DNA from: a virus
Taxonomy: Duplodnaviria; Heunggongvirae; Uroviricota; Caudoviricetes
Length of the DNA stretch: 20,716 nt
IMG/VR virus record: IMGVR_UViG_3300045988_076837
Location: 1 to 20,716 of that record
Strand: one strand, 5' to 3'
Shown: piece by piece, positions 3,181 through 20,716 of the stretch
Layout: the number at the start of each line of letters is the position of its first letter
Position numbering within the stretch: position 1 is the stretch's first letter
Program-made: the position numbers and the translations under genes
The notes under the pieces: generated by a model
Seen by the model: the letters and a program-made list of their open reading frames with translations, nothing else
What the model was told of the DNA's origin: nothing
Database searches by the model: none

Positions 3181-4035
3181 ATGGCAAAAAAAGTCTCAAA
3201 ATTCTTTCGTATCGGCGTTGAGGGTGACACCTGTGACGGGCGTGTCATCAGTGCGCAGGATATTCAGGAAATGGCCGAAACCTTTGACCCGCGTGTCTAT
3301 GGTTGCCGTATTAACCTGGAACATCTGCGCGGCATCCTGCCTGACGGTATTTTTAAGCGTTATGGCGATGTGGCCGAACTGAAGGCCGAAAAGATTGACG
3401 ATGATTCGGCGCTGAAAGGCAAATGGGCGCTGTTTGCGAAAATCACCCCGACCGATGACCTTATCGCGATGAACAAGGCCGCGCAGAAGGTTTATACCTC
3501 AATGGAAATTCAGCCGAACTTTGCCAACACCGGCAAATGTTATCTGGTGGGTCTGGCCGTCACCGATGACCCGGCAAGCCTCGGTACGGAATACCTGGAA
3601 TTCTGCCGCACGGCAAAACACAACCCCCTGAACCGCTTCAAATTAAGCCCTGAAAACCTGATTTCAGTGGCAACGCCCGTTGAGCTGGAATTTGAAGACC
3701 TGCCTGAAACCGTGTTCACCGCCCTGACTGAAAAGGTGAAATCCATTTTTGGCCGCAAACAGGCCAGCGATGACGCCCGTCTGAATGATGTGCATGAAGC
3801 GGTGACCGCTGTTGCTGAACATGTGCAGGAAAAACTGAGCGCCACTGAGCAGCGCCTCGCGGAGATGGAAACCGCCTTTTCCGCACTTAAGCAGGATGTA
3901 GCTGACAGGGCGGATGAAACCAGCCAGGCATTCACCCGCCTGAAAAACAGTCTCGACCACACCGAAAGTCTGACCCAGCAGCGCCGCAGCAAGGCCACCG
4001 GCGGTGGCGGTGACGCCCTGATGACGAACTGCTGA
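3181..4035 (+). CDS. O: Capsid scaffolding protein (P2 gpO-like)
   Basis: ORF 3115-4035. I prefer the start at 3181 (MAKKVSKFF...), which is preceded by AGGA and gives 284 aa. The central coiled-coil-like region is typical of a scaffold protein. Position is between P and N. Confidence 0.88.
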   Translation: MAKKVSKFFRIGVEGDTCDGRVISAQDIQEMAETFDPRVYGCRINLEHLRGILPDGIFKRYGDVAELKAEKIDDDSALKGKWALFAKITPTDDLIAMNKAAQKVYTSMEIQPNFANTGKCYLVGLAVTDDPASLGTEYLEFCRTAKHNPLNRFKLSPENLISVATPVELEFEDLPETVFTALTEKVKSIFGRKQASDDARLNDVHEAVTAVAEHVQEKLSATEQRLAEMETAFSALKQDVADRADETSQAFTRLKNSLDHTESLTQQRRSKATGGGGDALMTNC

Positions 4036-4093
4036 CCGGCGTCAGCCAGTCCGGGAAAACCTTCACGATTAACCCTTAATTTCAGGAAAAACT

Positions 4094-7011: not shown

Positions 7012-7508
7012 TGCCGGTAATTAACACGCATCAGAATATCGCCGCCTTTCTCGACATGCTGGCCGTGTCCGAAGGGACGGCGAATCATCCGCTGACGAAA
7101 AACCGGGGCTATGACGTGATAGTCACCGGACTGGACGGGAAGCCGGAAATTTTCACCGACTACAGTGACCACCCGTTCGCGCATGGCCGACCGGCGAAGG
7201 TGTTTAACCGTCGCGGTGAAAAATCCACGGCCTCCGGTCGCTATCAGCAGCTTTACCTGTTCTGGCCGCATTACCGCAAACAGCTTGCCCTGCCGGATTT
7301 CAGTCCGTTGTCACAGGACAGACTTGCCATTCAGTTGATCCGCGAACGCGGTGCACTGGATGACATCCGGGCGGGACGCATTGAACGCGCCATTTCACGC
7401 TGTCGCAATATCTGGGCGTCCCTGCCGGGAGCCGGTTACGGTCAGCGTGAGCATTCACTGGAAAAACTGGTCACCGTCTGGCGTACCGCCGGCGGCGTAC
7501 CGGCTTAA
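7011..7508 (+). CDS. K: Endolysin / lysozyme (P2 gpK-like)
   Basis: 165-aa ORF recognised as P2 K-family phage lysozyme. Its start overlaps the Y stop (TAATG). Confidence 0.9.
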   Translation: MPVINTHQNIAAFLDMLAVSEGTANHPLTKNRGYDVIVTGLDGKPEIFTDYSDHPFAHGRPAKVFNRRGEKSTASGRYQQLYLFWPHYRKQLALPDFSPLSQDRLAIQLIRERGALDDIRAGRIERAISRCRNIWASLPGAGYGQREHSLEKLVTVWRTAGGVPA

Positions 7509-10437: not shown

Positions 10438-11346
10438 ATGCCGATTATCGACCTGAACCAGCTACCCGCACCGGATGTGGTTGAGGAGCTGGACTTTGAA
10501 ACCATTCTTGCCGAACGCAAGGCGACACTGATTTCCCTTTACCCGGAAGACCAGCAGGAGGCGGTCGCCCGTACCCTGACGCTGGAATCCGAGCCTCTCG
10601 TCAAACTGCTGGAGGAAAATGCTTATCGTGAGCTTATCTGGCGTCAGCGTGTGAATGAGGCCGCACGGGCAGTAATGCTGGCCTGTGCCGCCGGTAATGA
10701 CCTTGATGTGATTGGTGCCAATTACAACACCACGCGCCTGATTATCACCCCGGCAGATGATTCGACCATCCCGCCGACACCGGCAGTGATGGAGTCTGAC
10801 ACCGATTATCGTCTGCGTATTCAGCAGGCGTTTGAGGGCTTAAGCGTCGCCGGGTCGGTGGGAGCATATCAGTATCATGGTCGCAGTGCCGACGGGCGTG
10901 TCGCGGATATCTCTGTCACCAGTCCGTCTCCGGCCTGCGTCACCATCTCTGTGCTGTCACGTGAAAATAACGGCGTCGCATCCGAAGACCTGCTGGCTGT
11001 GGTACGTAACGCCCTGAATGGCGAGGATGTCAGGCCGGTGGCCGACCGCGTGACCGTGCAGTCTGCCGCCATCGTTGAATACCAGATAAACGCCACGCTT
11101 TACCTTTACCCTGGTCCCGAAAGCGAACCCATCCGCGCTGCCGCCGTGAAAAAACTGGAAGCGTATATCACGGCACAGCACCGGCTGGGGCGCGACATCC
11201 GTCTGTCTGCCATTTATGCCGCTTTGCATGTGGAAGGCGTGCAGCGTGTCGAACTGGCTGCACCACTGGCCGACATCGTGCTCAACAGTACGCAGGCGTC
11301 TTTCTGTACAGAATACCGCGTCGTGACCGGAGGCTCGGATGAGTGA
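10438..11346 (+). CDS. J: Baseplate wedge protein (P2 gpJ-like)
   Basis: 302-aa ORF recognised as P2 J-like. Synteny. Confidence 0.9.
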   Translation: MPIIDLNQLPAPDVVEELDFETILAERKATLISLYPEDQQEAVARTLTLESEPLVKLLEENAYRELIWRQRVNEAARAVMLACAAGNDLDVIGANYNTTRLIITPADDSTIPPTPAVMESDTDYRLRIQQAFEGLSVAGSVGAYQYHGRSADGRVADISVTSPSPACVTISVLSRENNGVASEDLLAVVRNALNGEDVRPVADRVTVQSAAIVEYQINATLYLYPGPESEPIRAAAVKKLEAYITAQHRLGRDIRLSAIYAALHVEGVQRVELAAPLADIVLNSTQASFCTEYRVVTGGSDE

Positions 11347-11879: not shown

Positions 11880-14492
11880 ATGAGCACGAAATTTAAAACC
11901 GTTATCACTACTGCCGGAGCCGCGAAGCTGGCAGCCGCCACTGTTCCCGGCGGGAAAAAAGTAAACCTGTCTGCAATGGCTGTGGGTGACGGTAATGGCC
12001 AATTGCCGGTGCCGGATGCCGGTCAGACGAAACTGGTGCATGAAGTCTGGCGTCATGCCCTGAATAAAGTCAGTGTGGATAACAAGAATAAAAACTATAT
12101 CGTGGCTGAACTGGTTGTTCCGCCAGAAGTGGGCGGCTTCTGGATGCGTGAGCTTGGTCTGTATGACGATGCCGGAACACTGATTGCGGTATCCAACATG
12201 GCAGAAAGCTATAAGCCAGAACTGGCTGAAGGCTCCGGACGTGCGCAGACCTGCCGCATGGTTATTATTCTCAGCAACGTGGCGTCCGTTGAGCTGAGTA
12301 TTGATGCCAGCACAGTGATGGCGACGCAGGATTACGTCGATGACAAAATCGCAGAGCATGAGCAGTCCCGCCGCCATCCTGACGCCACGCTGACAGAAAA
12401 AGGTTTTACTCAGTTAAGCAGTGCAACAACCAGCACCAGTGAGTCATTGGCGGCAACGCCAAAAGCGGTCAAGGCAGCAAATGACAACGCAAATTCACGT
12501 CTGGCGAAAAATCAGAATGGTGCAGATATCCAGGATAAATCAGCTTTTCTGGACAATGTTGGCGTTACCAGCCTGACGTTTATGAAAAACAACGGCGAAA
12601 TGCCGGTTGATGCTGATCTGAATACATTTGGTCCTGTTAAGGCTTATTCAGGTATCTGGTCTAAAGCAACGTCCACCAACGCAACACTGGAGAAAAATTT
12701 CCCGGAAGATAATGCTGTCGGTGTGCTTGAGGTTTTTGCTGGCGGCAATTTTGCAGGCACGCAACGCTATACCACACGTGACGGAAATTTGTATATCCGC
12801 AAACTCATTGGAACATGGAATGGTAATGATGGACCATGGGGAGCATGGCGCCATGTTCAGGCTGTAACGCGTGCTCTAAGTACGACCATTGACCTTAACT
12901 CTCTCGGTGGCGCAGAACATTTAGGTTTATGGAGAAACAGCAGTTCAGCAATAGCTTCTTTTGAACGACATTACCCTGAGCAGGGAGGAGACGCGCAGGG
13001 CATTCTGGAAATTTTCGAAGGTGGGCTATATGGACGCACGCAGCGTTATACAACCCGTAACGGGACTATGTATATTCGCGGCCTGACAGCCAAATGGGAT
13101 GCAGAAAATCCACAGTGGGAAGACTGGATCCAAATTGGTTATCAGACCAGTAGTACCTTCTATGAGGATGACCTGGATGATTTGATGTCTCCGGGTATTT
13201 ACAGTGTGACAGGCAAAGCGACCCACACCCCAATCCAGGGGCAGTCTGGTTTTCTGGAAGTCATCAGGCGCAAGGATGGTGTCTATGTTTTGCAACGTTA
13301 CACGACCACAGGAACCAGCGCAGCTACAAAAGACCGTTTATATGAGCGAGTTTTTCTTGGTGGCTCATTTAACGCGTGGGGGGAGTGGCGACAGATTTAT
13401 AACTCAAACTCTTTGCCGTTAGAGTTGGGTATCGGTGGCGCAGTGGCAAAACTCACCAGCCTGGACTGGCAGACATACGATTTTGTGCCGGGCAGTCTGA
13501 TAACCGTTCGGCTTGATAATATGACCAACATTCCCGACGGTATGGACTGGGGCGTCATTGATGGCAACCTGATAAACATCGCAGTTGGTCCGAGTGATGA
13601 TTCCGGTACGGGGCGCTCAATGCATGTATGGCGCAGCACTGTAAGTAAAGCGAACTACCGCTTTTTTATGGTGCGTATTTCAGGAAATCCGGGAAGCCGC
13701 ACGATCACGACAAGACGTGTGCCAATTATCGACGAAGCTCAGACATGGGGCGCGAAACAGACATTCAGTGCTGGCCTTTCTGGCGAACTGTCCGGCAATG
13801 CGGCTACAGCTACAAAGCTGAAAACGCCAAGGACAATTAACGGCGTAAAATTTGACGGCTCGGCAAATATTGAAGCGTTTCCGCCAGGTGTTCCGCTGCC
13901 GTGGCCATCAGATACACCACCTGCAGGCTATGCGATCATGCAGGGGCAGACGTTTGATAAGGCTGCATATCCGAAACTGGCTATTGCCTATCCTTCTGGT
14001 GTTATTCCTGATATGCGCGGCTGGACAATCAAGGGCAAACCCGCCAGTGGGCGTGCCGTATTGTCACAGGAACAGGACGGGATTAAATCGCATACTCACA
14101 GCGCCAGTGCGTCAAATACGGACTTAGGAACGAAAACGACCAGTTCATTTGATTACGGGACAAAAACAGTCAGTACGTTTAACCACGGCACGAAATCAAC
14201 CAATACTTCTGGCAATCATACACATACCGTCGGTTTTGCTGTGAGCGTGCAATCAGGCGGTGCAGATTATGGTGTTCCGCGAAGTGATAAAGGTGCTACG
14301 ACTACAAGTTCATCAGGCAATCATGCACATACAGTCGACATTGGAGCACATAACCATACTGTTGGTATTGGTGCACATTCACACACTGTTGCTATTGGCT
14401 CACACGGGCATTCCATTACCGTAAATGCTACTGGTAATACCGAAAACACCGTCAAAAACATCGCATTTAACTATATTGTGAGGCTTGCATAA
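11880..14492 (+). CDS. H: Tail fiber protein (P2 gpH-like, mosaic with a long divergent C-terminal part)
   Basis: 870-aa ORF. The N-terminal part ([27 protein letters not shown]...) is recognisably H-like. The distal part contains three tandem repeats of about 45 aa and a His-x-His-rich C-terminus. It is followed by G, whose start overlaps its stop. Confidence 0.9.
12720..13398 (+). repeat. Three tandem, degenerate repeats of about 45 codons inside H (protein-level repeat)
   Basis: [94 protein letters not shown] and [50 protein letters not shown] share the pattern G-x-LE-[VI]-x(6-8)-QRYTT-x(3-12)-Y-x-R-x(6-8)-W-x(3)-W. Confidence 0.6.
14211..14425 (+). repeat. His-x-His repeat tract at the C-terminal tip of H
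   Basis: GNHTHTV...[36 protein letters not shown], with matching near-repeats at the nucleotide level. Such HxH arrays form metal-binding interdigitated tips in phage long tail fibres, for example T4 gp37. Confidence 0.55.
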
Positions 14493-15070
14493 TGGCTTTC
14501 AGAATGAGTGCAGAAGCACAAACTATCCGCGTTTTCAATTTACTTGATGGAACCAATGAGTTTATTGGCGAAAGTGATGCATATATTCCGCCGTATACTG
14601 GCCTGCCTGCAAACAGTACAGATATTGCACCACCTGATATTCCTGCTGGTTATGCAGCCGTTTTCAATGCAGATGAAATGAAATGGGAGTTGATGGAAGA
14701 TCATCGCGGAAAGACTGTCTACGAAACGAAAATGGGAGCAGCCATTTATATTTCTGAACTTGGCGCATTACCTCCAGACGTGACAGCCATTTCCCCGGAG
14801 GGGGATTATCAGAAATGGAACGGAAATGCGTGGGTGAATGATGAGAATGCAGAGCGTGATGCACTTGTCAGAGCGGCTGAGTCTCAGAAGAAAGAGCAGA
14901 TTGCATATGCAGGTGAAATCATTGCCATGCTGCAGGATGCTGTCGATTTAGATATGGCTACCGAGGAAGAAAAGTTAAGCCTGACACACTGGAAAAAATA
15001 CCGTGTGCTGCTTAATCGCGTTCAGCCGGAAAATGCTCCGGATATAGAATGGCCTGAAATGCCGCAATAA
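14492..15070 (+). CDS. G: Tail fiber assembly chaperone (P2 gpG-like)
   Basis: 192-aa ORF whose start overlaps the H stop. Position and size match P2 G. Composition is AT-richer than the backbone, like the distal part of H. Confidence 0.85.
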
Positions 15071-15382
15071 ATTGTATAAGCTCTGATGTGAGTTTATACA
15101 TCTATGGCACAGAGTAAAAACTAATCTGGCAGTCCGCTCTGTGCCAATTGCAGACGTTGTTGCACTGCAAAAATATCTTGTCCGGATCAAGGTATCGCCA
15201 CCACTTGTTAGGTGGATTAATCCGTATTTATAACAAATACAATTCCCGGCTGTACCTATAAGCTGTTGTCAGTTATACAAAAGCGATGTAGTGTTCCACA
15301 CATTAAATTTACAAACGTGGAAAAGTCCGTGTTTAGATACAGATTTTTCCGCTGAATAACCGCATATTTCCAAAGGTTTATC
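15071..15382 (+). promoter_or_regulatory. AT-rich non-coding leader of the cargo gene, with repeated motifs and candidate promoter elements
   Basis: 312 bp with no ORF. It has two copies of TATAAGCT-N-TTATACA (15075-15100 and 15257-15279), a 9-bp inverted repeat (15106-15114 / 15137-15145) and weak sigma70-like hexamers before the ATG at 15383. Exact promoter not determined. Confidence 0.3.
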
Positions 15383-16348
15383 ATGAGTAAGTGGCTATTA
15401 GACAGGCTATTTGAAGCCGGTGATCAGGCAGAGCCCCGGTTTGCGTTTCAGGGGACTGTAAATTGGATGAGGGCCCTTGCCGAAGTCGTTAACGGTGGCG
15501 CTTGTGCCGATGATAAACTAAATGATTTATATGCTCGGGTACAACGTAGACCTGTCAATCGTGAAGCTGATACGCTTGTGTTTGAGAACACAATGATGGC
15601 CTTACATAATCTGTCATCTTTGAAAAGTATGAATAAAGATGTCGAAGATAAATATGACATATGTCGTTCAGCTATTATTTCTTGGTATTACAGTATCTAT
15701 TTTTCCGCTAGCGCGATGGTTGCAGCATCTTCTGGTTCTATTCAAGAGACACATACAGCCACAGCAAAAGTTTGGCAGTCAGATATCGCGGAAAAAGAAC
15801 TTATCCCATATCCATTTAATCTTCTTCTAACTAGTTTAGTTTCAAACACTGCTGATGCCGAGATTGCTGCATATAGAGGTGCTAACCGTTTCGACCTGAA
15901 TGATAGAGCTTATGATAATGAAACTGCTCATGGTGCACTGGTTTCCTATCTAAAGGGGACTCATGGCTACAAAAAGTGGGAAACAGAAGAGAGGGTGAGA
16001 ACTTCTCGTGATTTCAAAGCTCTTGGTGTTGACAACTTTCGCACGAAAGCTGCTCGCGAAGTTCGCGATCACGCACTAGAAAAAGGACAAGTTAATTTCC
16101 TTATTCAGGCATTTAGATACCGTGGTAAAGCGAACTATCGTGACTCTATATTTTTATCCTACGGTGACAACAACGAAGCTATTATAGAAGAATTTATCCA
16201 AGATTTGTATGACGTCGCTATTGGCTTCATTAGGGCTACTTCGCATTATTGCAGTCGAAGAGTCGAGAGAGGTACGTGGGCTGAGTTTGTCGAGGATATT
16301 TCTGATAACTCAAGGTTGTCTATTGACTCTGTCGTGCTTGAAATATAA
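15383..16348 (+). CDS. Hypothetical protein, 321 aa, cargo (moron) gene at the G/FI hotspot; function unknown, candidate anti-phage or exclusion protein
   Basis: Clean 966-nt ORF in a visibly AT-rich island, flanked by non-coding DNA on both sides and followed by terminator hairpins. Its composition and codon usage differ from the flanking phage genes. It occupies the position of P2 Z/fun. I recognise no family. Confidence 0.8.
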   Translation: MSKWLLDRLFEAGDQAEPRFAFQGTVNWMRALAEVVNGGACADDKLNDLYARVQRRPVNREADTLVFENTMMALHNLSSLKSMNKDVEDKYDICRSAIISWYYSIYFSASAMVAASSGSIQETHTATAKVWQSDIAEKELIPYPFNLLLTSLVSNTADAEIAAYRGANRFDLNDRAYDNETAHGALVSYLKGTHGYKKWETEERVRTSRDFKALGVDNFRTKAAREVRDHALEKGQVNFLIQAFRYRGKANYRDSIFLSYGDNNEAIIEEFIQDLYDVAIGFIRATSHYCSRRVERGTWAEFVEDISDNSRLSIDSVVLEI

Positions 16349-16556
16349 CAAACAATTTAAGAATGGCTCAGCACGCTTGGCATTTTCAGTTTGGTTCAAA
16401 TTTAGTGATTAAGGTATTCAAATTGAGTATGGTGAATACGTGCTTCACACTTTAATTGGGCGTTAATGCCCGCTTTTCGCTCAAAGCAGACTGTCAGATT
16501 TAATAGCGTTTTGATTATGTAACTTGTCAGTTGGAAGCTGAGTGAGAACAAATCAA

Positions 16557-16590
16557 GGCAGGCGGGCTGATTGCCCGCCTTTTCTTTATC
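16557..16590 (+). terminator. Rho-independent terminator closing the cargo transcription unit
   Basis: GC-rich hairpin ggcgggc (16561-16567) / gcccgcc (16573-16579) with a 5-nt loop, followed by ttttctttatc. A weaker hairpin plus T-run lies at 16458-16477. Confidence 0.6.
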
Positions 16591-16684
16591 TGTTGTTTCA
16601 TCCACTGGCCAGCCAGGTCAAATAGCGCCTCATGCCCTGCACAACTGAAAATACCACTCACCCATTAACCACGGAGTTAAACGG
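16591..16684 (+). promoter_or_regulatory. Candidate late promoter region upstream of FI
   Basis: Lies between the terminator and the FI start. It contains ctgttgtttca (16590-16600), similar to the motif in the P/O spacer. P2 has a late promoter at this position. Confidence 0.35.
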
Positions 16685-17875
16685 ATGAGTGATTATCATC
16701 ACGGTGTGCAGGTGCTGGAGATTAACGACGGCACCCGCGTCATTTCCACCGTATCCACTGCCATTGTCGGCATGGTCTGCACGGCCAGCGATGCGGATGC
16801 GGAAACCTTCCCCCTCAATAAACCGGTGCTGATTACCAATGTGCAGAGTGCGATTGCAAAGGCCGGTAAAAAAGGCACGCTGGCGGCGTCGTTGCAGGCC
16901 ATCGCTGACCAGTCAAAACCGGTCACCGTTGTTGTGCGCGTGGAAGACGGCACCGGCGACGACGAAGAAACGAAACTTGCGCAGACCGTTTCCAATATCA
17001 TCGGCACCACTGACGAAAACGGTCAGTACACCGGACTGAAAGCCCTGATGGGGGCTGAGTCGGTTACCGGCGTTAAACCGCGCATTCTTGGTGTGCCGGG
17101 GCTGGACACCAAAGAGGTTGCCGTCGCACTGGCATCGGTATGCCAGGAACTGAATGCATTCGGGTATATCAGCGCATGGGGCTGTAAAACCATTTCCGAG
17201 GTGAAAGCCTACCGCCAGAATTTCAGCCAGCGTGAGCTGATGGTCATCTGGCCGGATTTCCTCGCATGGGATACGGTTACCAGTACCACCGCCACCGCGT
17301 ATGCCACCGCCCGTGCGCTGGGGCTGCGCGCTAAAATCGACCAGGAGCAGGGCTGGCATAAAACGCTGTCCAACGTCGGGGTAAACGGTGTTACCGGCAT
17401 CAGCGCATCTGTATTCTGGGATTTGCAGAAGTCTGGCACTGATGCTGACCTGCTGAACGAGGCAGGCGTCACAACGCTGGTTCGCCGCGACGGTTTCCGT
17501 TTCTGGGGTAACCGTACCTGCTCCGATGACCCACTGTTCCTCTTTGAAAGCTACACACGCACCGCGCAGGTACTGGCTGACACGATGGCTGAGGCGCACA
17601 TGTGGGCTATTGATAAGCCCATCACCGCAACACTGATTCGCGACATCATTGATGGCATCAATGCCAAATTCCGCGAACTGAAAAGCAACGGTTATATCGT
17701 GGATGGCACATGCTGGTTCAGTGAAGAATCCAACGATGCGGAAACCCTCAAGGCCGGAAAACTGTATATCGACTACGACTATACCCCGGTGCCTCCCCTC
17801 GAAAACCTGACCCTGCGCCAGCGTATTACTTCTAGATACCTGGCAAGTCTGGTCACCTCGGTTAACAGCAATTAA
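16685..17875 (+). CDS. FI: Tail sheath protein (P2 gpFI-like)
   Basis: 396-aa ORF recognised as contractile tail sheath protein. GGAG RBS. Followed by the tube gene. Confidence 0.93.
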   Translation: MSDYHHGVQVLEINDGTRVISTVSTAIVGMVCTASDADAETFPLNKPVLITNVQSAIAKAGKKGTLAASLQAIADQSKPVTVVVRVEDGTGDDEETKLAQTVSNIIGTTDENGQYTGLKALMGAESVTGVKPRILGVPGLDTKEVAVALASVCQELNAFGYISAWGCKTISEVKAYRQNFSQRELMVIWPDFLAWDTVTSTTATAYATARALGLRAKIDQEQGWHKTLSNVGVNGVTGISASVFWDLQKSGTDADLLNEAGVTTLVRRDGFRFWGNRTCSDDPLFLFESYTRTAQVLADTMAEAHMWAIDKPITATLIRDIIDGINAKFRELKSNGYIVDGTCWFSEESNDAETLKAGKLYIDYDYTPVPPLENLTLRQRITSRYLASLVTSVNSN

Positions 17876-17887
17876 GGAGCCTGACCG

Positions 17888-18406
17888 ATGGCAATGCCGC
17901 GCAAACTCAAATACATGAATGTCTTTCTGAACGGCTACAGCTATCAGGGCGTTGCAAATTCCGTCACGCTGCCAAAACTGACCCGTAAGCTCGAAAATTA
18001 TCGCGGTGCGGGAATGAACGGCAGCGCACCGGTAGACCTCGGCCTTGATGATGATGCGCTGTCAATGGAGTGGTCGCTCGGTGGATTCCCGGATTCGGTT
18101 ATCTGGGAGCTTTACGCTGCAACCAGTGCTGATGCCGTACCGATTCGTTTTGCTGGTTCTTACCAGCGCGACGATACCGGCGAAACGGTGGCCGTCGAAG
18201 TGGTCATGCGTGGGCGTCAGAAAGAAGTCGACACCGGAGAGGGTAAACAGGGAGAGGATACCGAATCGAAACTCCCGGTGATTTGTACTTATTTCCGGCT
18301 GACGATGGACGGTAAGGAGCTGGTCGAAATCGACACCATCAACATGATTGAGAAGGTGAACGGCGTCGACCGGCTGGAGCAACACCGCCGCAATATCGGC
18401 CTGTGA
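17888..18406 (+). CDS. FII: Tail tube protein (P2 gpFII-like)
   Basis: 172-aa ORF with a strong AAGGAG RBS. Position after the sheath gene. Confidence 0.92.
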   Translation: MAMPRKLKYMNVFLNGYSYQGVANSVTLPKLTRKLENYRGAGMNGSAPVDLGLDDDALSMEWSLGGFPDSVIWELYAATSADAVPIRFAGSYQRDDTGETVAVEVVMRGRQKEVDTGEGKQGEDTESKLPVICTYFRLTMDGKELVEIDTINMIEKVNGVDRLEQHRRNIGL

Positions 18407-18890: not shown

Positions 18891-20716
18891 CAATGTAAAA
18901 TTACAGGTATTGCTCAGGGCTGTTGACCAGGCATCCCGCCCGTTTAAATCCATCCGCACAGCGAGTAAGTCGCTGTCGGGGGATATCCGGGAAACACAAA
19001 AATCACTGCGCGAGCTGAACGGTCACGCATCCCGTATTGAGGGATTTCGCAAGACCAGCGCACAGCTCGCCGTGACTGGTCATGCACTTGAAAAGGCACG
19101 GCAGGAAGCCGAAGCCCTTGCCACACAGTTTAAAAACACTGAACGTCCGACCCGTGCTCAGGCGAAAGTGCTGGAATCCGCAAAGCGTGCGGCGGAGGAC
19201 TTACAGGCGAAATATAACCGCCTGACGGATTCTGTTAAACGCCAGCAGCGGGAACTGGCCGCTGTGGGAATTAATACCCGCAATCTTGCACATGATGAGC
19301 AGGGACTGAAAAACCGTATCAGTGAAACCACCGCACAGCTTAACCGTCAGCGCGACGCGCTGGCGCGTGTCAGTGCGCAACAGGCAAAACTTAACGCAGT
19401 AAAACAGCGTTATCAGGCAGGAAAGGAACTGGCCGGAAATATGGCCTCGGTGGGCGCTGCCGGTGTGGGGATTGCGGCGGCGGGAACGATGGCCGGAGTT
19501 AAGCTGCTTATGCCCGGTTATGAGTTTGCGCAGAAAAACTCAGAATTGCAGGCCGTGCTCGGAGTGGCAAAAGACTCCGCCGAAATGACCGCACTACGCA
19601 AACAGGCGCGCCAGCTCGGCGACAATACCGCCGCCTCGGCGGATGATGCGGCCGGTGCACAGATAATCATCGCGAAAGCGGGTGGGGATGTTGATGCCAT
19701 TCAGGCGGCAACGCCGGTCACGCTGAATATGGCGCTGGCGAACCGCCGCACGATGGAAGAAAACGCCGCCCTGCTGATGGGGATGAAATCCGCCTTTCAG
19801 CTTTCAAACGATAAGGTCGCTCATATCGGGGATGTTCTCTCCATGACGATGAACAAAACCGCCGCCGATTTTGACGGCATGAGCGATGCGCTGACCTATG
19901 CCGCACCTGTGGCAAAAAATGCCGGTGTCAGCATTGAAGAAACCGCCGCAATGGTCGGGGCGCTGCATGATGCAAAAATCACAGGCTCAATGGCGGGGAC
20001 GGGAAGCCGTGCCGTGTTAAGCCGCCTGCAGGCACCGACGGGAAAAGCATGGGATGCACTCAAAGAGCTTGGAGTGAAAACCTCAGACAGCAAGGGAAAC
20101 ACCCGGCCAATATTTACCATTCTGAAAGAAATGCAGGCCAGTTTTGAGAAAAACCGGCTCGGTACTGCCCAGCAGGCTGAATACATGAAAACTATTTTCG
20201 GGGAGGAGGCCAGCTCAGCCGCCGCCGTGCTGATGACTGCCGCCTCAACCGGAAAGCTGGACAAACTGACCGCTGCGTTTAAAGCCTCAGACGGGAAGAC
20301 CGCCGAGCTGGTAAATATCATGCAGGACAACCTCGGCGGTGACTTTAAAGAGTTTCAGTCCGCTTATGAGGCAGTGGGGACTGACCTGTTTGACCAGCAG
20401 GAAGGCGCGCTGCGTAAGCTCACGCAGACGGCCACAAAGTATATGTTAAAACTCGACGGCTGGATCCAGAAAAACAAATCACTGGCGTCAACCATCGGCA
20501 TCATTGCCGGTGGCGCGCTGGCGCTGACTGGCATCATCGGTGCCATTGGCCTCGTAGCCTGGCCGGTTATCACCGGCATCAATGCCATCATCGCGGCAGC
20601 AGGCGCAATGGGGGCAGTCTTCACGACGGTTGGCAGTGCTGTTATGACCGCCATCGGGGCTATTAGCTGGCCGGTTGTGGCCGTGGTGGCCGCCATTGTC
20701 GCCGGGGCGTTGCTTA
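18884..20716 (+). CDS. T: Tail tape measure protein (P2 gpT-like), 3'-truncated by the window end
   Basis: ATG at 18884 (MSNNVKLQVLLRAVDQASRPFKSIRT...) opens a frame with no stop through 20716, which is 611 codons. It is Ala/Gln-rich and coiled-coil-like, with a hydrophobic Gly/Ala-rich segment near the end. It is missing from the ORF track, presumably because it has no stop inside the window. Confidence 0.9.

Follow-up and report, generated by a model that had tools for sequence, protein, structure and literature searches.

The window analysed here (that is, the whole stretch of 20,716 nucleotides, positions 1 to 20,716 of the IMG/VR virus record IMGVR_UViG_3300045988_076837, assigned to the Caudoviricetes) holds the late region of a P2-like phage, in which a single cargo gene encoding a 321-amino-acid protein is lodged between gene G (tail-fibre assembly) and gene FI (tail sheath). 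We tentatively read this protein as a candidate stand-alone abortive-infection RNase derived from HEPN-T domains and carried as a prophage accessory gene (a 'moron'), an assignment that we place a little short of an even chance; a part in defence of some kind, other mechanisms included, appears on our analysis to be fairly probable. Directly supported are the reality of the gene and the constraint on it, the HEPN fold, the pattern of conserved residues, the location in a hotspot and the mobility of the module that carries it. The initial annotation, made from the letters alone, had suggested a single-protein defence factor, and this survives as our best reading of a lone cargo gene, as yet unplaced, within a hotspot for defence genes, the activity itself being presumed.

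The gene is real and under strong purifying selection: the ratio of non-synonymous to synonymous substitution rates (dN/dS) is 0.04–0.07 against the Aeromonas, Pseudoalteromonas and Vibrio copies. It is, as initially annotated, the sole substantial open reading frame (ORF) of the insert, and its start is backed by the conserved N terminus of its homologues. These number 768, almost all of 317–323 amino acids, and form 399 clusters at 50% identity that are mostly full-length and stand alone in nearly every case; the family is rare, with 93 hits among 100,044 species genomes, and the phyla represented include Gamma-, Alpha- and Betaproteobacteria, Campylobacterota, Nitrospirota, Cyanobacteria, Bacteroidota, Elusimicrobia, Verrucomicrobia and others. 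Scans of the protein against Pfam, PADLOC, PHROGs and NCBIfam gave no match, none of the homologues carries a precomputed Pfam domain, tblastn found no homologue in 50,697 phage records, and literature searches by accession (WP_000049501, WP_006326560 and WP_064146273) returned no papers. The family and its architecture are undescribed; HEPN-based defence candidates as such are already well known. The initial annotation could place the protein in no family, which holds for curated families, yet comparison of folds does give HEPN, nearest the AF0298/UPF0332 type. Truncated or split copies also exist: residues 1–189 are encoded on several Klebsiella plasmids (H65–H68), at two places per record, a 239-amino-acid form occurs in E. 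coli (P0017), and a Providencia 3' fragment spans residues 180–321 only (L134); such copies may stem from disruption by insertion sequences or from selection against a toxic gene.

The AlphaFold2 model of the protein (pLDDT 91.2, pTM 0.91) is all-alpha and shows the four-helix up-and-down arrangement of HEPN domains, and on this model the protein has a HEPN fold. Support at the sequence level is weak but consistent. When a core profile built with the internal insert spliced out was searched against the PDB, only three entries matched (an SMN-like protein, the HEPN protein 9xbd and AF0298, 2hsb), of which 9xbd and 2hsb align on the WYYxxYxxAxAM helix and the histidine that follows it, His124 falling on the histidine of 9xbd and on that of AF0298 (KTH). 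PF05168 (HEPN) is the commonest weak Pfam match, seen in 5 of 54 members; the best E values of the relatives are 0.019–0.023 (about 13–15 bits against a cut-off of 22), and the protein of the window does not match. 'UPF0332 family' is also the JGI name of three homologues. In other searches of this kind, the full-length profile gave only chance matches in the PDB (MPP-beta and cytochrome bc1 core subunits), the YaaC-like family PF14175 matched weakly in only two spliced cores (E 0.003–0.004, over 36–81 residues around the WYY...H helix), and a YaaC-like bridge sought through the divergent member P0175 found no Pfam-annotated relatives.

The residues that would form an active site are among the best conserved of the protein. 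In its most conserved block (Table 1), R245 and K249 are invariant, and R247, G248, Y252, R253 and D254 are kept in more than 90% of the 54 sequences compared; R247-x4-Y252 occupies the position of the HEPN Rx4–6H motif, with Tyr252 standing where the histidine of the motif would be. His124 is conserved in more than 90% of alignment A2 and invariant in A1 and A4, and it is a conserved histidine between helices 2 and 3, as expected of AF0298-like HEPN-T domains. According to Anantharaman et al. (PMC3710099), these domains lose the histidine of the motif and keep its arginine, and with the second conserved histidine, from the segment that joins helices 2 and 3, an RNase site could be restored; the same paper, in its reading of 2013, groups AbiV with AF0298-like domains for its alternative histidine. 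AbiV itself has been shown by experiment to be a metal-independent RNase (bioRxiv 10.1101/2024.05.05.592566), and because its mutagenesis used the canonical pair R91-H97, the alternative site remains a proposal. It is plausible that the 321-amino-acid protein is an RNase with such a site, in which H124 would lie near R245 and R247.

The position of the gene adds to this picture. Among 80 P2-like viral loci fetched through FI, the spacing between G and FI ranges from 124 to 4,404 bp, and the 47 occupied junctions (the window counted) hold 39 cargo clusters. PADLOC models were matched by 8 of 10 sampled cargo proteins, the matches being a retron I-B ATPase-Toprim with its reverse transcriptase (RT), an AriA/PtuA-like ATPase, DarT, TIR, PD-T4-6, PDC-S15 and Shedu SduA. 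The G/FI junction is a defence hotspot, and the variable cargo expected there from the initial annotation is borne out by these comparisons. The 321-amino-acid family is absent from the 46 other occupied junctions.

The gene travels within a 1,360-bp module that consists of a palindrome, a leader, the gene, a 3' region and a second palindrome. Copies with the same ends, 99.1–99.8% identical, lie in L001, L010–L016, L018, L019, L100, L101 and L118, with flanks that are all different, and at more than 99% identity the module occurs in at least ten unrelated contexts in Escherichia, Klebsiella, Pantoea, Erwinia and Silvania. It adjoins a type II restriction–modification pair and an integrase (L001; 41 E. 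coli genomes), and further copies stand within a CP4-like island, beside umuDC-like genes where lambdoid prophages end, downstream of lambda O/P, at ssrA in an island that also holds an integrase, QatBCD and a KAP NTPase (L013), on a Pantoea plasmid, in Erwinia and Silvania genomes, and on a ~110-kb Klebsiella plasmid, typed as non-mobilizable and with genes that are mostly hypothetical, which we take to be an SSU5-like phage-plasmid; at the lambdoid cargo sites, beside the restriction–modification pair and beside QatBCD and the KAP NTPase, the protein is identical. Comparison of the module boundaries across contexts revealed no target-site duplication; the outermost 8 bp differ by context and the interior is nearly identical. 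In Aeromonas, Vibrio and Photobacterium loci the leader and the 3' region are not kept alongside the gene, and the gene alone is, judging from these alignments, the conserved unit. At the G/FI site, the module is in no complete E. coli genome. A contig from a human gut metagenome (L009) is an exact match to the window over the 2.8 kb compared (14401–17200), with the same flanking gene order; its host is taken to be a related enterobacterium rather than E. coli, since the identity to E. coli is only ~90% in the chromosomal DNA that flanks it (fieF-pfkA-sbp).

The module holds little besides the gene. Only short, unconserved ORFs were found when a second gene or antitoxin was sought, a sigma-70 scan of the leader gave nothing at the scan threshold, and Rfam had no match in the leader or the module, its sole match on the island being a sub-threshold one to IS009 in gene G. 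The only repeat of the 3' region is a two-copy 12-mer, and its fold is unremarkable (z −1.8). A 75%-identical homologue stands, in the metagenome contig L006, together with three small ORFs between two rhodanese genes of 103 amino acids (7184–7495 and 10896–11207), which looks like an insertion inside a duplicated target.

More distant homologues were surveyed at 73 loci, where 137 neighbours were scanned. No conserved partner gene stands beside these homologues, and NTP_transf_2 is not recurrent among the neighbours, which include integrases, AAA_21 and SMC-type ATPases, DNA methylases, ResIII helicases, Hachiman HamB, Gabija GajA, Lamassu LmuB, a CAP12/Pycsar TIR domain and several PDC candidates. 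Proteins of the Abi_C/AbiJ type (motif SAHGRG) also occur (L107 9039–9854, L130 436–1251, L117 1447–2187, L154, where the gene lies two genes upstream of the homologue, L129, and L171 7024–7875), one such family being adjacent in four to six loci; in two loci a related N-terminal region is joined to a CAP12-type TIR domain. This family is an occasional association and not a conserved partner. A HigB-like toxin lies beside the Desulfovibrio homologue, and an MNT-type nucleotidyltransferase near, not adjacent to, an Aeromonas homologue.

Assuming that the protein is indeed an abortive-infection RNase, the RNase activity, trigger and protection that we infer can be envisioned as follows. The lysogen would make the HEPN protein in a latent form, and an infecting phage would supply a trigger, sensed probably by residues 1–59 and the insert at about residues 137–238. 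The HEPN core, probably a dimer, would then cut RNA (tRNA, rRNA or mRNA) without a metal ion, through His124 acting with Arg247/Arg245 (and Lys249 and Tyr252) instead of the canonical Rx4–6H pair, and the resulting halt of translation would block the spread of the phage. The gene itself travels on the palindrome-ended module, which is exchanged between the cargo sites of prophages, phage-plasmids, plasmids and islands of defence genes.

Several points weigh against this scenario. The canonical Rx4–6H motif before the last core helix is absent and the family has no histidine there (the REVRDH of the window is not conserved, H230 being variable), and HEPN domains without catalytic residues, according to PMC3710099, serve as binding domains, many of the motif-less ones being non-catalytic. 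The proximity of H124 to R245 and R247 is presumed, Foldseek searches of the PDB and BFVD returned nothing significant and no full-length structural match, and PADLOC-DB v2.0.0, with models up to 2023, has 0 families matching at E ≤ 1. The likeness of the neighbours of the homologues to a typical defence-island mix is a qualitative one. Moreover, such strong conservation is less typical of fast-evolving immune sensors, and no antitoxin or regulator that would keep a constitutive RNase silent is evident.

The missing motif would sit well with a non-catalytic HEPN-fold protein that binds nucleotides, RNA or protein and works as a regulator, sensor, adaptor, anti-defence factor or other factor of lysogenic conversion, given that PMC3710099 assigns a binding role to domains that lack the catalytic residues and that strong purifying selection fits a binding surface equally well. 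The set of His, Arg, Lys and Tyr residues, however, fits the proposed alternative catalytic arrangement, the protein stands alone with no conserved partner gene to regulate, and the surrounding genes are defence effectors rather than anti-defence genes; we regard this alternative as unlikely. A toxin-like gene for addiction or stabilization, which would favour retention of the mobile elements that carry it and have no anti-phage role of its own, is less likely still; it could, for example, belong to a type III-like toxin–antitoxin system whose RNA antitoxin has escaped recognition in the leader or 3' region. AbiV works with an adjacent RNA antitoxin (bioRxiv 10.1101/2024.05.05.592566), the HigB-like toxin and the MNT protein lie near the Desulfovibrio and Aeromonas homologues, and the module is present on plasmids and phage-plasmids. 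Yet the gene has no conserved neighbouring ORF, and the leader and 3' region are unconserved in Aeromonas, Vibrio and Photobacterium, match nothing in Rfam and offer only the two-copy 12-mer and the unremarkable 3' fold.

The shape of the module raises the further possibility that the 321-amino-acid protein is its mobility enzyme, a new recombinase or transposase: the module has the size of an insertion sequence, one ORF and terminal inverted symmetry (GTCYGCT...AGCRGAC), copies more than 99% identical stand at at least ten unrelated sites, and the Arg/Lys/His/Arg/Tyr residues superficially resemble the set of tyrosine recombinases. However, the same palindromes flank dozens of unrelated cargos that lack the gene, homologues at 86–92% nucleotide identity (Vibrio, Photobacterium, Pseudoalteromonas and Aeromonas) lack such ends, there are no target-site duplications, and an all-alpha HEPN bundle is unlike any known transposase or recombinase; we consider this very improbable. 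That the protein is homologous to Z/fun, as offered in the initial annotation, or serves in phage structure or morphogenesis is suggested by its position between G and FI alone, and we give this almost no weight. BLASTP detected no similarity to the 233-amino-acid P2 ORF at the site, a comparison that left out the 85-amino-acid P2 ORF, and none to fiAA91-ss orf20; neither the 50,697 phage records nor PHROGs contain a relative, and the gene is missing from the 46 other occupied junctions, with about 13 junctions being empty. A Z/fun, orf20 or structural/morphogenetic identity was rejected on these grounds (BLASTP, tblastn, PHROGs and absence elsewhere at the junction).

The palindromes at the ends of the module point to a platform that extends beyond this one gene. 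A search of the window with the pattern GYCYGCT-N10-WGCRGAC gave five matches (two sites on both strands and one weak) against 0.08 expected. At the occupied junctions, a left-type palindrome stands 62 or 50 bp past the stop of G in 31 of 46, and a right-type palindrome about 215 bp before the ATG of FI in 30 of 46; the halves that face the backbone are constant, and the cargo-side arms vary with the cargo. Cassettes also form tandem arrays in which they are linked through a right site, an 18-bp linker and a left site (L101, L054 and L020; in L101, the junctions are at 1131–1196, 2509–2574 and 3990–4055). The exact 47-nt composite junction was found in 57 viral contigs, many of 40–70 kb and many not P2-sized (L180–L236), that hold 27 complete cassettes of 0.5–4.2 kb, whose ORFs include DarTG, a DRT reverse transcriptase, PDC-S06 and PDC-S33, and the arrays lie mostly downstream of tail-fibre assembly genes or lambda P. 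No recombinase or integrase was found to recur beside the arrays, and the data suggest exchange at the palindromes by an enzyme that acts in trans. We suggest that units bounded by GTCYGCT-N10-AGCRGAC may let defence genes change places between prophages of the P2-like and lambdoid kinds, phage-plasmids, plasmids and islands of the chromosome, in the manner of an integron but outside any integron. That both ideas hold together (that is, a new family of single-protein abortive-infection RNases with an alternative His124/Arg247 site and a built-in sensor, and an undescribed cassette platform) is rather doubtful.

Some further observations concern the palindromes and arrays. The third site in the window, with one mismatch (GTCCGCTTATGAGGCAGTGGGGAC, 20358–20381 on the plus strand), lies in the tail-gene region about 3.7 kb downstream of the island and, having neither type of spacer, is probably a chance match. 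The spacer of the left palindrome (15141–15148) contains GTGCCAAT, the first 8 nt of the sfx sequence of the R64 shufflon (GTGCCAATCC), on which the Rci recombinase acts; the resemblance may be fortuitous, and we note it only as a possible pointer to the recombinase. The contig L101 (USAV01000131.1, 4,103 bp), labelled 'uncultured Veillonella sp.', carries the module at 99.3% identity in an array of three cassettes (a GNAT-like acetyltransferase, so named from its sequence alone, the 321-amino-acid gene and a 390-amino-acid ORF) and is probably mis-binned enterobacterial DNA.

The limits of the insert were measured against empty P2-like junctions. The backbone of the window is a P2-like late region (H at 11880–14492 and FII at 17888–18406, on either side of G and FI), and from the stop of G to the start of FI there are 1,614 bp of non-backbone DNA, which the initial annotation had taken as a 1.6-kb insert. 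Foreign DNA is indeed present there, but its true limits are narrower (Table 1): 13 or so empty junctions, of about 124–190 bp, run from the stop of G through a hairpin to the upstream region of FI and read G stop, AT, A and then CAGGCGGGC..., the terminator, and the window departs from them after 15072 and rejoins them at 16559. Since the empty junctions have the same hairpin directly after the stop of G, the hairpin and T-run at 16560–16590, initially assigned to the cargo as its own terminator (16557–16590), exist as described but belong to the G operon of the backbone (fold −18.5 kcal/mol, z −3.06). The sole candidate for a terminator of the cargo itself is a small hairpin with a T-run that overlaps the right palindrome, and it is weak, its local fold being no better than that of shuffled sequences (z −0.68). 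The 312-bp leader initially described before the ORF follows arithmetically from the stop of G and the start of the ORF.

The insert is nested, outer arms surrounding the module. The left arm occurs with other cargo in P2, P2-EC46 and fiAA91-ss, and it corresponds to a portion of what the GenBank annotation of AJ512680 calls the 'left inverted repeat', the right arm being the 'right inverted repeat' of that record; a hairpin with a 10-bp stem (15105–15114 with 15137–15146; −19.1 kcal/mol, z −2.55) includes the left arm. The AT-richness of the island, first judged by eye, was confirmed by computation: the module has 41.2% GC against 55.4% for the rest of the window (other 1,360-bp windows: mean 55.7%, s.d. 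3.0, minimum 47.4), and the GC content at third codon positions (GC3) of the cargo ORF is 0.34. The left edge is not sharp in composition because the DNA before it, from the 3' end of H to the end of G (13900–15070), is itself GC-poor (0.46–0.47, with a GC3 of 0.39 in G, against 0.55 for the backbone), which suggests that the tail-fibre tip and its chaperone are a swapped host-range module in their own right. The sub-threshold IS009 match in the 3' end of G (14900–15033, plus strand; 41.5 bits against a gathering threshold of 117, E 1e-07) most likely reflects common coding sequence for tail-fibre assembly and not an RNA gene.

Table 1 Features of the G/FI junction and its cargo, in window coordinates
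Feature	Position	Strand	Basis or remark
Gene G, tail-fibre assembly, left border of the junction	14492–15070	+	Pfam Caudo_TAP, E 2.8e-39; ORF list
Whole insert, ~1,486 bp	15073–16558		Comparison with empty junctions
Outer left arm	15073–15131		blastn to L002, L003 and L017 covers 15047–15158
Mobile module	15132–16491	+	Copies with the same ends elsewhere
Left 24-bp imperfect palindrome GTCCGCTCTGTGCCAATTGCAGAC, left end of the module	15132–15155		Identically placed in every copy of the module
Leader of the cargo gene	15156–15382	+	AAGG 8–11 nt upstream of the ATG
Cargo gene, stand-alone 321-amino-acid HEPN-fold protein	15383–16348	+	AF0298/UPF0332-like core, N-terminal extension, ~100-amino-acid insert
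Codon of His124, candidate catalytic 'alternative' histidine	15752–15754	+	Between helices 90–117 and 124–136
R245-Y-R247-G-K249-A-N-Y252-R-D254, most conserved block	16115–16144	+	54 sequences, down to 25% identity
Small GC hairpin and T-run, overlapping the right palindrome	16457–16472	+	Terminator-like scan match
Right 24-bp imperfect palindrome GCCCGCTTTTCGCTCAAAGCAGAC, right end of the module	16468–16491		Pattern search
Outer right arm	16492–16558		Common to P2-like phages with other cargo; phage matches begin at 16465–16471
Backbone terminator of the V–G late operon	16559–16590	+	Stem 16560–16580 and T-run; terminator scan
Gene FI, tail sheath, right border of the junction	16685–17875	+	Pfam Phage_sheath_1, Phage_sheath_1C and Gp18_domIII_N

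If the protein proved protective, it would constitute a compact system of one gene (1.36 kb, native flanks included) and would put to a functional test, for the first time, the 'alternative active site' that was proposed in 2013 for HEPN domains of the AF0298 type, a large group; its near-constant length and strong conservation across phyla make it well suited to structure–function work. Its nearest relatives in fold, the AF0298-like HEPN-T domains (UPF0332/COG2250, PF05168, 2hsb), are of about 120–130 amino acids and often paired or fused with minimal nucleotidyltransferases (MNTs), whereas the protein here, at 321 amino acids, lies below the PF05168 threshold, has no MNT partner and adds a 59-amino-acid N-terminal extension, a C-terminal tail and an insert of about 100 amino acids with conserved YLxGT and FRTKxARxxRD blocks of its own. 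AbiV of Lactococcus resembles it as a HEPN protein in phage defence that has been grouped with AF0298-like domains for an alternative histidine; it differs, however, in its length of 201 amino acids, its RNHKSKH motif (R-x5-H) and its dependence on the RNA antitoxin abiV2, and it neither matches in sequence (PADLOC, E ≤ 1) nor has a counterpart here to its adjacent RNA (no Rfam match). The anti-phage HEPN RNases that act as single proteins (HepS of Gifsy-1, Tha, ApeA and DARNA/PD-T7-3), and likewise PrrC, RloC and the toxins RnlA/LsoA, all have the canonical Rx4–6H that is missing here and share no sequence similarity with this protein, in which extra parts are inserted into the HEPN core; DARNA/PD-T7-3, of 456 amino acids with a canonical RX4H (R117/H122), was rejected as being the same protein. 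In contrast to HepT/MntA (the HEPN-MNT pair of type VII toxin–antitoxin systems), the gene has no MNT gene beside it and its product lacks an RX4H motif, Y252 taking the position of the catalytic histidine.

The palindrome-bounded cassettes, for their part, give a testable handle on how prophage hotspots exchange defence genes so quickly and cleanly, a recombination process that, according to a 2026 preprint on P2/P4 hotspots, "still needs to be elucidated". The module shares inverted-symmetric ends with insertion sequences and departs from them in that it makes no target duplication, its ends are common to unrelated cargos and its protein has a HEPN fold. With the P2 Z/fun locus and the Z-region cargos (AJ512680 and AJ512681) it shares the G/FI insertion point, the repeat arms and the 24-bp palindromes; the cargo protein is unrelated. 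The closest parallel in organization may be drawn with integron cassettes, which are likewise short, mostly single-gene and promoter-poor units with imperfect palindromes (attC) between them, stand in tandem arrays and often hold defence genes (for a precedent, see bioRxiv 10.1101/2024.07.02.601686). The boundary sequences here nevertheless lack the GTTRRRY/RYYYAAC cores, no integrase lies next to the arrays, and the arrays sit inside prophages, each cassette having a site at both ends, with an 18-bp linker joining the sites.

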